Shown: positions 8,575 to 25,599, counted from the first letter of the stretch. The stretch: 44,659 nucleotides of DNA from Nitrospinota bacterium (GCA_038108555.1 JAYNIA010000018.1:1-44659); one strand, 5' to 3'. Notes: generated from the sequence alone by a model not told the origin. A program made the numbers and translations.

Positions 8575-8656
8575 CCCTCACCCCAACCCTCTCCCCTCAA
8601 GGGAGAGGGAGCCAAAGTCCCTTCTCCCCTGGAGGGAGAAGAATAGGATGAGGGGG
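8575..8656. repeat. REP/BoxC-like palindromic doublet between ruvA and ruvB
   Basis: ccctcaccccaa-[ccctctccc ctcaa gggagaggg]-spacer-[cttctccc ctgga gggagaag]-aataggatgagggg; two hairpins plus complementary outer tails. Confidence 0.8.
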
Positions 8657-8671
8657 AAAAGAATAAATCCT

Positions 8672-9697
8672 ATGGAAGAAGACAGACTGATCGATTCGGA
8701 AATGAGCGGTGAAGAGGTTCAGTTCGACAACAAACTGCGACCCAACCAACTCAAGGAATACATTGGTCAGGAAAAAGTAAAAGAAAACCTGGAGGTTTTC
8801 ATCTCAGCCGCAAAAATGAGAAATGAGTCTTTAGACCACGTCCTTTTCTATGGGCCTCCCGGCCTTGGCAAAACCACCCTCGCAAATATCATTGCTGAGG
8901 AAATGGGAGCCAATATCAAAAGCACTTCAGGTCCGGTGATCGAAAAATGCGGCGATCTTGCTGCTCTGCTGACAAATTTAAAACACGGCGATGTGTTGTT
9001 CATTGATGAAATTCACCGGCTCTCCAACGTCATTGAAGAAATTCTGTATTCCGCCATGGAAGACTATAAGTTGGATATCATGATCGGCCAGGGTCCAAGC
9101 GCGCGTTCCATCAAACTCGATCTGCCTCCCTTCACTTTGGTCGGAGCGACAACGAGGGCGGGACTCCTCACCTCACCTCTTAGAGACCGTTTTGGAGTAG
9201 TGCATCGACTCGATTATTACAATGAAAAGGAATTGGAGACCATACTCACCCGTTCCGCATTCATTTTGGAAATATCCATTGTTCCCGATGGGGCCAATGA
9301 AATCGCACGCCGCTCACGAGGCACTCCAAGAATTGCGAATCGCCTTTTAAGACGTGTGCGCGACTACGCCCAGGTCAAGGCAGACGGAGTCATCAACCGC
9401 GATGTTGCCAGTAACGCACTGGAAATGATGGAAGTCGATGATAAGGGTTTGGATAAAATGGACCACAAACTGTTATTGGCGATGATCGAGAAATATTCCG
9501 GTGGACCGGTAGGCATTGAAAGTCTCGCCGCTTCCATCAGCGAAGAGAAAGACACCATCGAAGATGTTCTGGAACCTTATTTGATCCAGACCGGATTCAT
9601 CCAGCGCACACCCCGGGGCCGGGTAGCAACTCCCATGGCCTACGAGCATTTCAAAAAAATTCCCCCCAGCCAGGGCCAGCAGGAAAAATTGTTCTAG
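8672..9697 (+). CDS. ruvB: Holliday junction branch migration helicase RuvB
   Basis: [47 protein letters not shown]; start at 8672 preferred. Confidence 0.98.
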
Positions 9698-9719: not shown

Positions 9720-9841
9720 AGTAGGTTTTATCCCCCCTGATAAGGGGGGACATAGGGGGGTTCCAAATCTCTAAATTCAACCCCAAAAACAACCCCCTCA
9801 TTCCCCCTTAACAGGGGGAGGATTATTGACAACCCCCTCCA
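9720..9841. repeat. Direct repeat copy 1 (REPIN-like inverted hairpin doublet)
   Basis: agtaggttttatcccccctgataaggggggacataggggggttccaaatctctaaattcaaccccaaaaacaaccccctcattcccccttaacagggggaggattattgacaaccccctcca; recurs at 11254-11378. Confidence 0.95.
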
Positions 9842-9844
9842 ACA

Positions 9845-9873
9845 TTCCAAATATTTTGGATTACTGATATAAT
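9845..9873 (+). promoter_or_regulatory. Sigma70 promoter of the cassette
   Basis: TTCCAA-17 nt-TATAAT with extended -10 TGn, ~30 nt before ATG 9905. Confidence 0.65.
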
Positions 9874-9904
9874 TTAGTACATCCTTAACTTAGGTGAGAA
9901 ACCA

Positions 9905-10303
9905 ATGCAATTAAAGAAAATAGTTTTACATTCCACTATTTGGTTTTTGTCAACGTTTCTTACACAACCGGCATATTCTCATTCTGGGCGAACCGATTCC
10001 AGCGGTTGCCACACGAACCGCAAAACAGGGCAATACCATTGCCACAGTAAAAAATCAAAACCAACTTATCAAAGGTATAAATCCCGGGCACTAAGAAATA
10101 CTGCAAAACCACCAAATCCAAAACCTAAACAAAAATTAAAACCCAAGCCCACTAAATCCAATGCAATAAACATTGATAGTGGACCAAACGGAAACGGCCC
10201 CTATAATTGGGAAGATGAAAATGGCATACATATTGTTTTTGATATAAACAGAGTTCCAAAACATTTAAGAGAGAAAATTAAGAAAAGAAGTCATGCCAGA
10301 TAA
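9905..10303 (+). CDS. Secreted YHYH-domain protein with Lys/Pro-rich linker and DUF4124-like C-terminus
   Basis: Signal peptide ending AYS, HSGRTDSSGCHTNRKTGQYHCH motif, C-terminal YNWEDENG...VP. Confidence 0.8.
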   Translation: MQLKKIVLHSTIWFLSTFLTQPAYSHSGRTDSSGCHTNRKTGQYHCHSKKSKPTYQRYKSRALRNTAKPPNPKPKQKLKPKPTKSNAINIDSGPNGNGPYNWEDENGIHIVFDINRVPKHLREKIKKRSHAR

Positions 10304-11258
10304 ATGTCCCGTTTGCACATTCGAATTGAATGGTACTTATCCCGTTAGTGGAACGTATGATTATTCTTTTGATTGCCCTAATTGCGGAAAATATATTCTT
10401 GAAAGTTTGGCAGAATCCTTACTAAAACCAAGCTTGGAGGAACACCCGAACCAGGCGGGGGTAATTAGCCATTATTTGAGAAAAAATCAGAAGGGAAAAA
10501 ACTGGCCTACTTTAGACGATGAAATTTTAAAAAAGCTTGTTGAGGAAGAAATTTATCCAAACCCTGCACAACAAGCAGCCAATTTAATTTTATGGCTTGG
10601 GAAAAACATATCTGCACCAGGAGAAGCTCATCTCATTCAACCCAAAACACATCAAGCAATCATTGGAGCGAGGGATGCAGAGGGCATTGAGTTTGTTTTA
10701 GATTATTTATTCGATAAAAAATTGGTAGAAAATGGTCGCCAATTCGAGATGACGCGCAAAATGGGAGTGGCCTTTGCCACTCTTTCATTTGAAGGTTGGG
10801 CTTATTATGAAGCAATAATGAAGGGCCAAACCATTTCCAAAAAAGCATTCATGGCTATGGAGTTTGGAAACACCGTTTTGGACAAAGTTTTTAGTGAATG
10901 CTTTAAACCCGCAGTAAAAAAAACCGGTTTTGATCTTCAAACTGTACTCGAACAACCTAAGGCTGGGTCCATCGATGATCGGATTAGAGTCGAAATAAGA
11001 AATTCAAAATTCCTTATTGCCGATTTGTCCCATTCCAATAATGGCGCCTATTGGGAAGCAGGTTTTGCGGAAGGATTAGGGAAAATTGTAATTTACACCT
11101 GCCAAAAATCAGTTTGGGAAAATGAGAAAACTCATTTTGATACCAACCATCATCAGACTATTATCTGGGATGAAAATGATCTGGAAAAAGCGGCTGAAGA
11201 TTTAAAAGCCACGATCCGAGCCTCTCTCCCTGAAGATGCGATCATGTCAGATGAGTAG
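10293..11258 (+). CDS. Zn-ribbon + C-terminal TIR/nucleoside 2-deoxyribosyltransferase-like protein
   Basis: CPVC...CPNC; C-terminal AFMAMEF...IRNSKFLIADLSHSNNGAYWEAGFAEGLGKIVIYTC...HFD. Confidence 0.78.
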   Translation: MPDKCPVCTFELNGTYPVSGTYDYSFDCPNCGKYILESLAESLLKPSLEEHPNQAGVISHYLRKNQKGKNWPTLDDEILKKLVEEEIYPNPAQQAANLILWLGKNISAPGEAHLIQPKTHQAIIGARDAEGIEFVLDYLFDKKLVENGRQFEMTRKMGVAFATLSFEGWAYYEAIMKGQTISKKAFMAMEFGNTVLDKVFSECFKPAVKKTGFDLQTVLEQPKAGSIDDRIRVEIRNSKFLIADLSHSNNGAYWEAGFAEGLGKIVIYTCQKSVWENEKTHFDTNHHQTIIWDENDLEKAAEDLKATIRASLPEDAIMSDE

Positions 11259-11378
11259 ATTTTATCCCCCCTGACAAGGGGGGACATAGCGGGGTTCCAA
11301 ATCTCTAAATTCAACCCATAAAAACAACCCTCTCATTACCCCTTAACAGGAGGAAGATTATTGACAACTCCCCCTCCA
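11254..11378. repeat. Direct repeat copy 2 (REPIN-like inverted hairpin doublet)
   Basis: By eye about 8 substitutions and 2 short indels relative to 9720-9841; begins within the last codons of the upstream gene and includes its TAG stop. Confidence 0.95.
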
Positions 11379-11399
11379 CCTTTTTATATTTGACATTTA

Positions 11400-11415
11400 T
11401 AGAATGATCGGTCTA
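11400..11415. promoter_or_regulatory. TetR (NemR-like) operator 1
   Basis: TAGAATGATCGGTCTA, imperfect palindrome overlapping the spacer of a TTGACA(11390)-18-TAATAT promoter. Confidence 0.7.
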
Positions 11416-11424
11416 ATATCAGGA

Positions 11425-12024
11425 ATGGCACGCGGAAGACCACAGGAATTTGATCGAGAAGCTGTCCTCAAAAAAGCGATGGAGCTTTTCTGGGCTCAGG
11501 GCTACCAGGCCGCAGGCATGCAGGCGTTGACCGAGCACATGGGAATCAGCAAGCAAAGTCTATACAACACCTTTGGAGATAAACATCGCCTGCTTCAGGA
11601 AGCCATTGACCATTACAGCAAATATTTATGCCAAAGATGGTCCACCCTGCTGGATGCACCAGGATCTCCATTAAAAAACCTGGAGGAATTTTTTAAATTC
11701 ATTGAGTCTTACCTATTCTCAAAAGATTTTAGAGGCTGCCTGATGGCCAACACAGCGCTGGAAATGGGGCATAAGGATCCGGTAATTCAGAAATTATTAA
11801 AAAAAAGAAGCTCAGATTTGGATAAAGTTATTGAAGGCAACCTGCAACGGGCCATTCAAAAGGGGGAACTCAAAAAATCAACCGACGCCAAGGGCTTAAC
11901 CCTGTTTATTATTAATATTCTTCGCGGCATCATGGTCACTGTGAAAGGAGGGGGATCAAAAGCGGAAATAAAAAATGTTTTAGCCAGTCTTAGAACTCAT
12001 TTAAAGCAGTTTGAACAAAAGTAG
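11425..12024 (+). CDS. TetR/AcrR family regulator (NemR-like)
   Basis: MARGRPQEFDRE, LFWAQGY, GISKQSLYNTFGDK, GCLMAN; start at 11425 preferred over 11404. Confidence 0.93.
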   Translation: MARGRPQEFDREAVLKKAMELFWAQGYQAAGMQALTEHMGISKQSLYNTFGDKHRLLQEAIDHYSKYLCQRWSTLLDAPGSPLKNLEEFFKFIESYLFSKDFRGCLMANTALEMGHKDPVIQKLLKKRSSDLDKVIEGNLQRAIQKGELKKSTDAKGLTLFIINILRGIMVTVKGGGSKAEIKNVLASLRTHLKQFEQK

Positions 12025-12041
12025 TTTTTTTTACCCATTTA

Positions 12042-12057
12042 TAGAACGGACGTTCTA
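12042..12057. promoter_or_regulatory. TetR (NemR-like) operator 2
   Basis: TAGAAC-GGAC-GTTCTA, perfect 6-bp inverted repeat upstream of the tautomerase gene. Confidence 0.75.
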
Positions 12058-12086
12058 CATATATTTCAAACGAAAGGAAATAAACC

Positions 12087-12323
12087 ATGCCATTAATCCA
12101 AATCAAAGGAATCAGCGGAATTTTAAACGATGAGAAAAAGAAGGAGTTGATTGAAAAGGTAACCGATGCGGTGGTGTCGGTCGAAGGCGAAGGTCTGAGG
12201 CCGGTAACCTGGGTACTGGTTGATGAGGTGCCTATGAGCAATTGGGCGGTTGGAGGCAAACAGGTGACTGCCGACTGCATCAAAAAACTGGCTGCCAACA
12301 CTTCAGCGGCTTGTGCAAGCTGA
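12087..12323 (+). CDS. 4-oxalocrotonate tautomerase family protein
   Basis: N-terminal Pro (MPLIQIK), KKELIEKVTDA, NWAVGG; GAAAGGA RBS. Confidence 0.92.
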   Translation: MPLIQIKGISGILNDEKKKELIEKVTDAVVSVEGEGLRPVTWVLVDEVPMSNWAVGGKQVTADCIKKLAANTSAACAS

Positions 12324-12335
12324 TCAAAATGTTAC

Positions 12336-12372
12336 GACAACCTCCTGTGCTTATTTTTGGCGGGGGGTTGTC
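12336..12372 (+). terminator. Intergenic hairpin (terminator or mRNA stabiliser)
   Basis: gacaacctcc...ggggggttgtc followed by atctttt. Confidence 0.5.
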
Positions 12373-12456
12373 ATCTTTTCCGGTGTAAGTTTTATGAATT
12401 TAATTAGACCAAATTAAAATTATTCTTCCTCAATTTCAATAAAGAAAGGAATCACT

Positions 12457-13002
12457 ATGGCAAGGATAGACCCGATTGAACCTGAAAATGCTATGGGCAA
12501 AGCAAAGGATTTATTGAATGCGGTTCAGAAAAATTTTGGCAAGGCCCCCAACATATTTAAAACTATGGCCCAATCTCCTGCAGCTATGGAAGGATTCCTG
12601 CAATTGCATGGGGCATTGGCAGGAGGTGTTTTATCGGAAGCCTTTCAGGAACAAATTGCCCTCTGTGTATCTGAAATCAATGGTTGCAATTACTGTCTTG
12701 CGGCCCACACTGCCATCGGGAAAGGTGTCGGTCTATCTGAGGAGGAGGTCATCTCCAGTCGACAGGGAGAAGCGATGGACCCCAAAATACAGGCGGGGCT
12801 GGAATTTGCCAGGGCCATCATCGCAAACCACGGTTGGGTTTCAGATGAAGAGTATCAAACTGTTCAGCAGGCGGGATACAGTTCCGAGGAAATCATCGAG
12901 ATCATTGCGCAGGTTGCAAAAAATCTGTTTGCGAACTACTTCAATCATATCGCAGGAACTGCAATCGACTTTCCAGCAGCATCGGACTTGAAAAAAGAAT
13001 AG
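12457..13002 (+). CDS. AhpD-like / carboxymuconolactone decarboxylase family peroxidase-related protein
   Basis: PNIFKTMAQSP, EQIALCVSEINGCNYCLAAH. Confidence 0.92.
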   Translation: MARIDPIEPENAMGKAKDLLNAVQKNFGKAPNIFKTMAQSPAAMEGFLQLHGALAGGVLSEAFQEQIALCVSEINGCNYCLAAHTAIGKGVGLSEEEVISSRQGEAMDPKIQAGLEFARAIIANHGWVSDEEYQTVQQAGYSSEEIIEIIAQVAKNLFANYFNHIAGTAIDFPAASDLKKE

Positions 13003-24852: not shown

Positions 24853-25599
24853 ATGAAAAACCTTCGTCCAAAACTAGTTTTTCTTACTGTATTGTTTTAT
24901 TCCATGGTCAGTACGGCCGCTTTTGCCAGCAATTCGGTAACTATCACCGAACCTGCAGATGGAGCAAAAATATCCGGCCCTGTAAAAGTCTGCCTTTCCA
25001 CTTCCGGAGTTATGGTAGAGCCTGCAAAAAATGGAGTCCATGAAGGTAAAGGACATCATCATCTCCTGGTGGATGTGGATATTCCCGGCGATTTGAGCAA
25101 ACCTATTGGGAAAGATGCACAGCATGTTCACATGGGCGATGGCTCAAAATGCAAAACACTAAATTTAAAAGCTGGAAAGCACACGATTCGCGCTCTATTT
25201 GCAAAAGGAAACCATGTACCTTATGACCCTGCCATCACTGCAAAGGTCAATGTTGAGGTCCTCTCCAATGTTACAATTACAAGTCCTCCCCATGGAGCTA
25301 TGGTTACCGGACCCGTAAAAGTTTGCCTGGAAACATCTGGTGTTGAAGTTGAACCTGCCAAAAAAGGGGTAAACGAAGGAAAAGGCCATCATCACCTTCT
25401 TGTTAACACGGATGTCCCACGAGATTTGAGTAAACCGATTGGGAAAGATGCCCAGCATGTTCATATGGGCGATGGTTCCACCTGCAAAGAGCTCAATTTG
25501 CCTTCAGGAAAACATACCATCCGCGCTCTCTTTGCAAAAGGAAATCACGTACCTTATGATCCTGCAATAACAACGGCGGTAACCTTTAACGTTAAGTAA
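24853..25599 (+). CDS. Exported protein with two tandem DUF4399 domains
   Basis: Signal peptide AFA; two 111-aa-spaced copies of GHHHLLV...HVHMGDG...GKHTIRALFAKGNHVPY. Confidence 0.85.
   Translation: MKNLRPKLVFLTVLFYSMVSTAAFASNSVTITEPADGAKISGPVKVCLSTSGVMVEPAKNGVHEGKGHHHLLVDVDIPGDLSKPIGKDAQHVHMGDGSKCKTLNLKAGKHTIRALFAKGNHVPYDPAITAKVNVEVLSNVTITSPPHGAMVTGPVKVCLETSGVEVEPAKKGVNEGKGHHHLLVNTDVPRDLSKPIGKDAQHVHMGDGSTCKELNLPSGKHTIRALFAKGNHVPYDPAITTAVTFNVK

Follow-up and report, generated by a model that had tools for sequence, protein, structure and literature searches.

Candidate DUF559-cassette ends in direct repeat bracket two genes, one apparently newly gained, behind ruvB in a Nitrospinota bacterium

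The window, that is the whole stretch of 44,659 nucleotides analysed here, comes from a Nitrospinota bacterium (GCA_038108555.1, JAYNIA010000018.1:1-44659). We refer to its source genome as G000, to the genomes of relatives by other G numbers, and to other loci by L numbers. The conserved left flank of a variable site is formed by ruvB (8648..9697, + strand; Pfam RuvB_N, 2.5e-84), the last gene of yebC-ruvC-ruvA-ruvB, which is found in relatives across the order. Behind it lie a 122-nt repeat (copy 1, 9720..9841, +), ORF1 (9905..10303, +), ORF2 (10293..11258, +) and a 125-nt repeat (copy 2, 11254..11378, +). Then come tetR, a tautomerase gene and CMD (11404..13002, +; Pfam), which are the remainder of an older island between ruvB and a PHP gene. 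The initial annotation had read this arrangement as a self-contained cassette, with two overlapping genes and their own promoter between long same-orientation repeats of about 90% identity and with no integrase or transposase nearby. These elements are indeed present. The two reading frames share 11 nt, and an extended -10 consensus (TGnTATAAT, 9865..9873, +), one of three matches in the whole window, is a candidate promoter ahead of ORF1. A Pfam scan of the 42 ORFs of the window gave no integrase or transposase family, and the three tyrosine recombinases of G000 are all located on other contigs. The unit had also been called visibly AT-rich; the direction of this difference is right (38.3% GC vs 42.6% genome-wide) but its size is modest, 8.3% of 4017 windows of 1.4 kb being equally low. 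We also noted that a TTGACA hexamer in the duplicated flank, at 9826-9855 and again at 11361-11390, pairs with a -10-like hexamer (10 and 11 of 12 matches, respectively), so that the duplication may have brought promoter sequence. Elsewhere in the window, a gene with two DUF4399 domains (24853-25599) explains a 300-nt internal repeat of 73% identity.

Aligned in the same orientation, the two copies are identical in 114 of 125 columns (91.2%), with 8 mismatches, 3 gap columns and a longest exact match of 27 nt. A chance origin of the pair is ruled out because the next-best match to the repeat in the genome is far weaker, with only 75.5% over 94 nt (62.6 bits, vs 170 bits for the pair). Likewise, a collapsed-assembly artefact is ruled out by metagenome contigs from four estuary runs of one study, since depth over the unit is level and two contigs from independent runs extend through copy 2 into the flank on either side. 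In each copy a 29-nt unit occurs as an inverted pair, hereafter a doublet; the unit has a C-rich and a G-rich stem with a loop between them, followed by a mirror G-rich arm. Copy 1, which is lineage-specific, consists of 5 nt of the ORF2 3' end, a left-end-type unit with a six-C stem (9730..9762, +), a 28-nt linker, a right-end-type unit with a five-C stem (9790..9820, -) and about 20 nt of the native flank of the copy-2 site. Copy 2 lies at the ancestral position and is more decayed, with its left-end unit at 11265-11296 and its right-end unit at about 11326-11353. In the ITxF definition, as given in PMC4666352, class II intrastrand-triplex motifs have pyrimidine, purine and reverse-Hoogsteen stems of 6-15 nt, loops of 1-6 nt and at most one mismatch. 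Three of the four units in the window, two in copy 1 and the left one in copy 2, fit this definition, the decayed right unit of copy 2 being the exception.

As expected for this class, the unit is dispersed, intergenic and more frequent than chance would have it: we counted 45 in G000 vs none in one block shuffle. Its exact pattern is present in 24 of 70 genomes of the family, within 2 of 12 genera, while the reversed control pattern occurs in none. Thermodynamic folding of the repeats with ViennaRNA gave hairpins alone and was no better than that of shuffles (z about -1), and the doublet pattern was found in no viral contig. An Rfam scan gave no match at gathering score; the weak match of 9728-9823 in copy 1 to whalefall-1 (23 vs 37 bits needed) leaves room for the idea that this orphan motif may be a repeat of the same class. 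The repeat is thus an abundant dispersed element, which had been named as a possible objection to the cassette reading, but the two copies are far more alike than random members of the family. Among the 1035 pairs formed by 46 related units in G000, one pair on contig C44 scored 208 and the window pair 188 and 179, while the next scored 89 and the median was 39; high scores (179-208) are therefore restricted to neighbouring direct pairs. Nine distinct local direct repeats were found in G000, two of which contain the unit, one being the window pair itself. On C44 (259-761), a 288-nt tandem duplication (95% over 220 nt) carries the same unit with another hairpin family at its end and no gene between. 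Also, between ruvA and ruvB, the window holds an inverted pair of a second, BoxC-like triplex-hairpin family (8575-8654), of the type that flanks another DUF559 clade, and in G001 and G003 this intergenic site carries the unit type of the window repeat.

The two unit types are found at the borders of DUF559 nuclease genes. Of 38 DUF559 genes, 36 have a triplex motif no more than 200 nt away, 30 of them on both flanks, whereas none of 139 control windows has one. By building a tree of 52 DUF559 proteins from across the family (6 of 58 loci were dropped, five as short hits and one without hit), we found four supported clades, each with, by inspection, its own hairpin family. The unit of the window flanks all seven loci of one of them (clade 3), including contig C63 of G000, which carries an intact-looking member, one of two DUF559 genes in this genome. 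At clade-3 genes the six-C unit lies upstream and the five-C unit at the 3' end. Doublets combine a left with a right type; this holds for 10 of 10 in G000 (p 9e-4) and for 9 of 11 at other loci. Moreover, in the copy-2 orthologues of G012 and G003 the linker opens with the exact clade-3 DUF559 leader, which precedes the start codon, and closes like the gene's 3' end. The make-up of a gene-less DUF559 cassette is clearest in these two orthologues, the linker having diverged in G000. Sequence comparison thus establishes that the units are those of DUF559 ends, and from this we infer that a doublet would be a DUF559 cassette whose gene was deleted. The enzyme guess of the initial annotation, a RAYT- or DUF559-like protein acting in trans, therefore holds as far as a link to DUF559 is concerned, but no RAYT was found in G000. 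Genome-wide, G000 also contains nine doublets with the hairpins inside, in which a right end meets a left end with 10-16 nt between them, as would be the case at the junction of a cassette circle. Outside the family, a triplex motif lies about 170 nt downstream of E. coli ycjD (DUF559), and two cyanobacterial plasmid genes are, like ycjD, followed or framed by such motifs. In the openly accessible literature we found no paper linking DUF559/YcjD to BoxC-type repeats.

ORF1 encodes a 132-aa YHYH-domain protein (NF033223, E 2e-13, over cut-off) with a likely signal peptide ahead of the YHYH domain, a linker rich in Lys and Pro, and a C-terminal segment that is conserved; the protein is likely secreted. 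ORF1 was found in none of 16 congeners and, by this comparison, is a newly gained gene at the site. Its donor was not found, the closest homologue (59%) being on a 474-nt contig. Full-length homologues stop a few codons earlier than ORF1, consistent with a junction at which ORF1 was fused to ORF2's leader. In viral contigs the YHYH motif was present in 125 of 151 candidates but never in a full-length homologue, and hence no phage source for ORF1 is shown. In other genomes of the order, none of 15 other matched loci had a G/C-rich triplex motif near the YHYH gene.

ORF2 encodes 321 aa with a four-Cys Zn ribbon, a winged helix and a C-terminal TIR/nucleoside-deoxyribosyltransferase (NDT)-like domain. 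It belongs to a large, unnamed family (4256 matches among 5936 candidates); the four Cys and Glu255 do not vary among 112 sequences. No family over cut-off was found in Pfam, NCBIfam or PADLOC, the alignment gave nothing under E 0.1 against PDB sequences, and ESM Atlas matches were exclusively to unnamed clusters. In the structure model (pLDDT 88.4), the predicted C-terminal domain aligns with 7o62 (Z 13.9, rmsd 3.0, 123 residues aligned) and with TIR domains (Z 11-13.5), the best Foldseek E for this domain being 1.6e-3, and the predicted middle part is a winged helix (Z 9.8 to a MarR protein). The modelled domain would thus combine the flavodoxin-like NDT/TIR fold with the catalytic Glu of TIR/NDT N-glycoside hydrolases, and on this model ORF2 is likely a nucleotide-cleaving defence protein. 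Of 130 listed neighbours of ORF2 relatives, 72 were scanned. A Pfam family was assigned at 1e-15 to 24, several of them from related loci; eight are of defence or mobility type (Cap15, SoFic, Schlafen AlbA_2, Abi_alpha, type I R-M S, DUF4365, IstB and resolvase), the others being housekeeping genes. We observed ORF2 relatives beside or between PmbA/TldD-family genes at L150, L157, L161-L163, L199 and L200, and one between attC-like sites in an integron-like array (L181, 60-1995).

Of the 16 congeners, which are about 20% diverged, 12 are informative at the ruvB site. Since a PHP gene directly follows ruvB in 5 of these and at 9 of 16 loci outside the genus, ruvB-PHP is the likely ancestral state. 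G012 has the order ruvB-ORF2-one doublet-tetR-tautomerase-CMD, with neither ORF1 nor copy 1, and a metagenome locus (L149) has the same order as far as its contig extends, again with no ORF1. In G003 a TfoX_N gene is followed by the ORF2 3' end, one doublet and tetR; G005 and G008 retain a broken ORF2 and CMD, G004 a CMD fragment, and G001 and G010 have a TfoX-like gene and tetR but no doublet. ORF2 orthologues are thus found in the same position in G012, G005, G003, G008 and L149, with frequent decay (G003, G005 and G008), and the single doublet behind ORF2 in G012, G003 and L149 is orthologous to copy 2. Hence, the site is variable as had been predicted, with deletions and other cargo (the TfoX_N gene in G001, G003 and G010), but none of the 12 informative congeners has the expected empty allele with one repeat (ruvB-doublet-tetR), nor copy 1 or any other doublet right behind ruvB. 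Two doublets or an ORF2-doublet tandem were likewise found neither in these congeners nor in L149; at this divergence, short-lived alleles would be missed. Together, these gene orders clearly indicate that the ancestral order was ruvB-ORF2-doublet-tetR and that copy 1 and ORF1 alone are new material, which speaks against the claim that the two genes form one mobile unit.

The relation between the two copies supports the same polarity. The stop codon of ORF2 sits within the first 5 nt of copy 2 and had been regarded as supplied by the repeat. Orthologues terminate at the same place, so that the stop is ORF2's own and it is copy 1 that took a piece of the end of ORF2. The linker and a downstream flank of about 20 nt are common to both copies, and this flank is also present behind ORF2 in G012 and L149. 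The copies, 91.2% alike, are only 79.1% and 73.7% identical to the G012 doublet (ruvB, 80.9%); being closer to each other than to that doublet, they split after the lineages did. Derived changes number four in copy 2 and one in copy 1. A search for circular junctions, proposed as a check of the cassette reading, gave no excision or circle joint in contigs of the four metagenome runs (one study), which drop rare variants. Read joints at 9820-11266, 9825-11262 and 9818-11265 were rejected as excisions: they skip 1436-1446 nt and not the required 1534-1537 nt, and both the letters inserted in them and their loose ends correspond to other G000 doublets (C3 and C8).

Repeat-bracketed cargo is also found at other loci. 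A scan for doublets with the tails inside, in one genome per species, gave 37 loci, 36 of them distinct; five are tandem or clustered without cargo and one (L134, 3546-5954) has cargo. There, between a lysA-hypothetical gene pair and dapF, a DUF559 gene and a doublet come first, then a 556-aa GmrSD_N-HNH-Mrr_N gene (GC 0.35; PADLOC NsnA, 1.6e-91) and a further repeat copy. This distal repeat is a 139-nt copy, at 93%, of the DUF559 3' end with its doublet, the other doublets of that genome being at 79-83%. Of 19 relative loci, 15 have both flanks and 14 of these lack the insert; the remaining one (L261, in genome G106) holds other cargo with no triplex motif. At L400 (3978-6550), a 191-nt direct repeat (96%) of the DUF559 3' end, hairpin and flank encloses about 2.2 kb of lipoprotein-like cargo, with the geometry of the window but mixed with another abundant repeat family; the site is rearranged in congeners and the empty-site picture is not clean. 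Direct-repeat cargo of this type was seen in 1 of 38 DUF559 regions of 5-16 kb. At L077 a whole DUF559 cassette is copied in tandem, and at L246 (770-1686) and L247 (706-2217) left and right cassette ends surround AT-rich ORFs (GC 0.35-0.38, no Pfam family), the nuclease being absent. However, the idea that genes adjacent to the repeat are generally AT-rich cargo was rejected, as in G000 the median GC of the 45 ORFs beside units exceeds that of the other 2499 (0.468 vs 0.433).

We favour, with moderate confidence, the reading in which doublets are joined DUF559-type ends, one of them shared with relatives together with ORF2, the second likely arising by local recombination as the YHYH gene was gained. 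A DUF559 cassette would have inserted behind ORF2 and later lost its gene, so that the doublet remained. At the hairpin, a break or a stalled fork could then have released or duplicated a doublet-ended piece, with ORF1 becoming joined to the leader of ORF2. Finally, host homologous recombination would have set ORF1-ORF2-doublet behind the resident doublet, whose own ORF2 was already, or was then, deleted; integration of a circle, or tandem duplication followed by deletion, would give an identical product. The order of these events, the circle or tandem intermediate and any enzyme activity are inferred, while the alignments themselves display the non-hairpin flanks of the copy-2 site within copy 1 and the recurrence of the bracketing anatomy. 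An exact match of 27 nt is near the minimum for RecA, and the repeats would permit rare RecA-type loss of both genes with no need for a dedicated recombinase. Local recombination is supported by the restriction of near-identical units to neighbouring direct pairs, by the frequent decay of ORF2 and the uptake of other cargo at the site, by the presence of ORF2 with one doublet but no ORF1 in G012 and L149, and by the sequence change that Holder et al. (2015) report near triplex motifs (PMC4666352). It is weakened by the lack of intermediates among the 12 informative congeners and L149, by the missing source of ORF1, and because it leaves unexplained by itself the same anatomy next to intact DUF559 genes at L134 and L400.

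A rival reading gives the nuclease a more active part. Acting in trans, DUF559 would nick hairpin-triplex ends and free circles that carry neighbour genes and one end; re-entering at a resident end, such circles would leave direct repeats of 120-190 nt around accessory or defence genes. This is possible, although we consider it rather unlikely. The bracketed defence gene of L134, missing as a whole insert in nearly all relatives with both flanks, the window-like geometry of L400, the tandem cassette of L077 and the ends around AT-rich ORFs at L246 and L247 speak for it, and both the tight association of motifs with DUF559 genes and the clade-3 gene in G000 fit it. However, cargo between long direct repeats is rare (one of 38 DUF559 regions and one of 36 doublet loci), the ORFs next to units in G000 are not AT-rich, the L134 site accepted triplex-free cargo in G106, and L246 and L247 were chosen by eye from a list rather than sampled at random. 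Also, we know of no action of any DUF559 protein on these repeats. We are similarly doubtful about the wider proposal that DUF559 and its cognate ends constitute an undescribed mobile-element family, which would seed gene-less end pairs and move neighbour genes via circles, the window, L134 and L400 being independent products.

The original model of the initial annotation, in which ORF1-ORF2 is one self-contained cassette inserted or excised between repeats as in an integron array, now seems very improbable. It accounts for the tight fit of the repeats around both genes and for their own promoter consensus, and ORF2 relatives are mobile elsewhere, as the attC-like sites of L181 indicate. Nevertheless, the relatives that carry ORF2 and copy 2 without ORF1 and copy 1 (G012 and L149) largely refute it. 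Moreover, neither a single-repeat empty allele nor alternative cargo between two repeats was found at the site, and of 80 loci with ORF2 relatives the window repeat occurs at one (L149) and brackets none, three being bracketed by direct repeats of other kinds, one of them attC-like. In agreement with the initial annotation, attC signatures are absent: a relaxed attC core pattern gave no match in either copy on either strand, whereas in the control L181 it gave three attC-like sites and three extra ones (a strict pattern missed this control also). The best IntI match in G000, an incomplete genome, reached 101 bits (TIGR02249) vs a cut-off of 265. Little better are the chances that the doublet made a short-distance hop as a MITE- or REPIN-like element, or that an old upstream copy was homogenised by gene conversion, ORF1 having come independently. 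The dispersal of gene-less cassette ends (45 units) and doublets with shared linkers at several sites of G102 would fit such a hop. A precise hop is not expected to include flanks of the copy-2 site on both sides, as copy 1 does (the last 5 nt of ORF2 and about 20 nt), a distant near-identical copy is absent from G000, and no congener has a doublet right behind ruvB. Overall, the locus is likely the result of one local recombination at a repeat already known as unstable, not the work of a dedicated system for two-gene cassettes.

Beyond this locus, our analysis adds three testable points: that doublets are joined nuclease-cassette ends, that enzyme clades track repeat families, and that newly gained genes can come to lie between long duplications with these ends at their centre, as does a defence gene whose site is cleanly empty in relatives (L134). 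If the nuclease does drive the bracketing, this would be an integrase-free route of gene capture. If it is not the driver, the locus amounts to a plain duplication where a repeat is unstable, with ORF2, a member of a large unnamed TIR/NDT-like family, as the chief by-product.

Like integron cassettes, the locus has small accessory genes between structured repeats, and an ORF2 relative is so placed in L181; unlike them, it has its own promoter consensus and no array, and its repeats are duplicates extending into gene and flank sequence. One-ended capture of the ISCR/IS91 type, followed by homologous re-entry, leaves a passenger between direct repeats that include part of a neighbour gene. The anatomy of the product is alike here, but there is no rolling-circle transposase and the repeats are hairpin pairs of 120-190 nt. 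ORF2 itself can be compared with TIR/NDT defence effectors such as SpbK, ThsB and TIR-STING, with which it would share the C-terminal NDT/TIR fold, as modelled, and the invariant Glu. Retron NDT effectors are a further comparison group for this domain. Unlike these effectors, ORF2 carries an N-terminal Zn ribbon and a winged helix and fits no named family. BoxC/triplex repeats have been known for decades and tied to genome variability without a mechanism; Holder et al. (2015) state that they found no mobility genes near their triplex motifs and that sequence around E. coli motifs had changed more than control sites had, the mechanism being unclear (PMC4666352). With BoxC/PIT/TM(ECO) repeats, as described there, the window repeat shares the pyrimidine stem, short loop, purine stem and mirror purine arm, as well as an intergenic, dispersed distribution, often as inverted pairs at variable loci. 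It differs in being another sequence family, and in that its pair of units can be traced back to both ends of a DUF559 cassette and is duplicated around genes. Finally, RAYT-REP/REPIN systems (PMC3116915, PMC3337134 and PMC3733652) also have cognate hairpins in inverted orientation on both sides of a small enzyme gene, with enzyme clades that track hairpin families, as the four DUF559 clades do here, and with dispersed gene-less inverted doublets of short palindromes, which were found here too. A Y1/HUH transposase was not found (PF01797, no match in G000, 91.85% complete), and a GTAG/CGTC tetramer lies within about 10 nt of only 4 of the 45 units. Unlike in RAYT-REPIN, the partner here is a Vsr-like PD-(D/E)xK protein (DUF559), and the units have a third, mirror arm.
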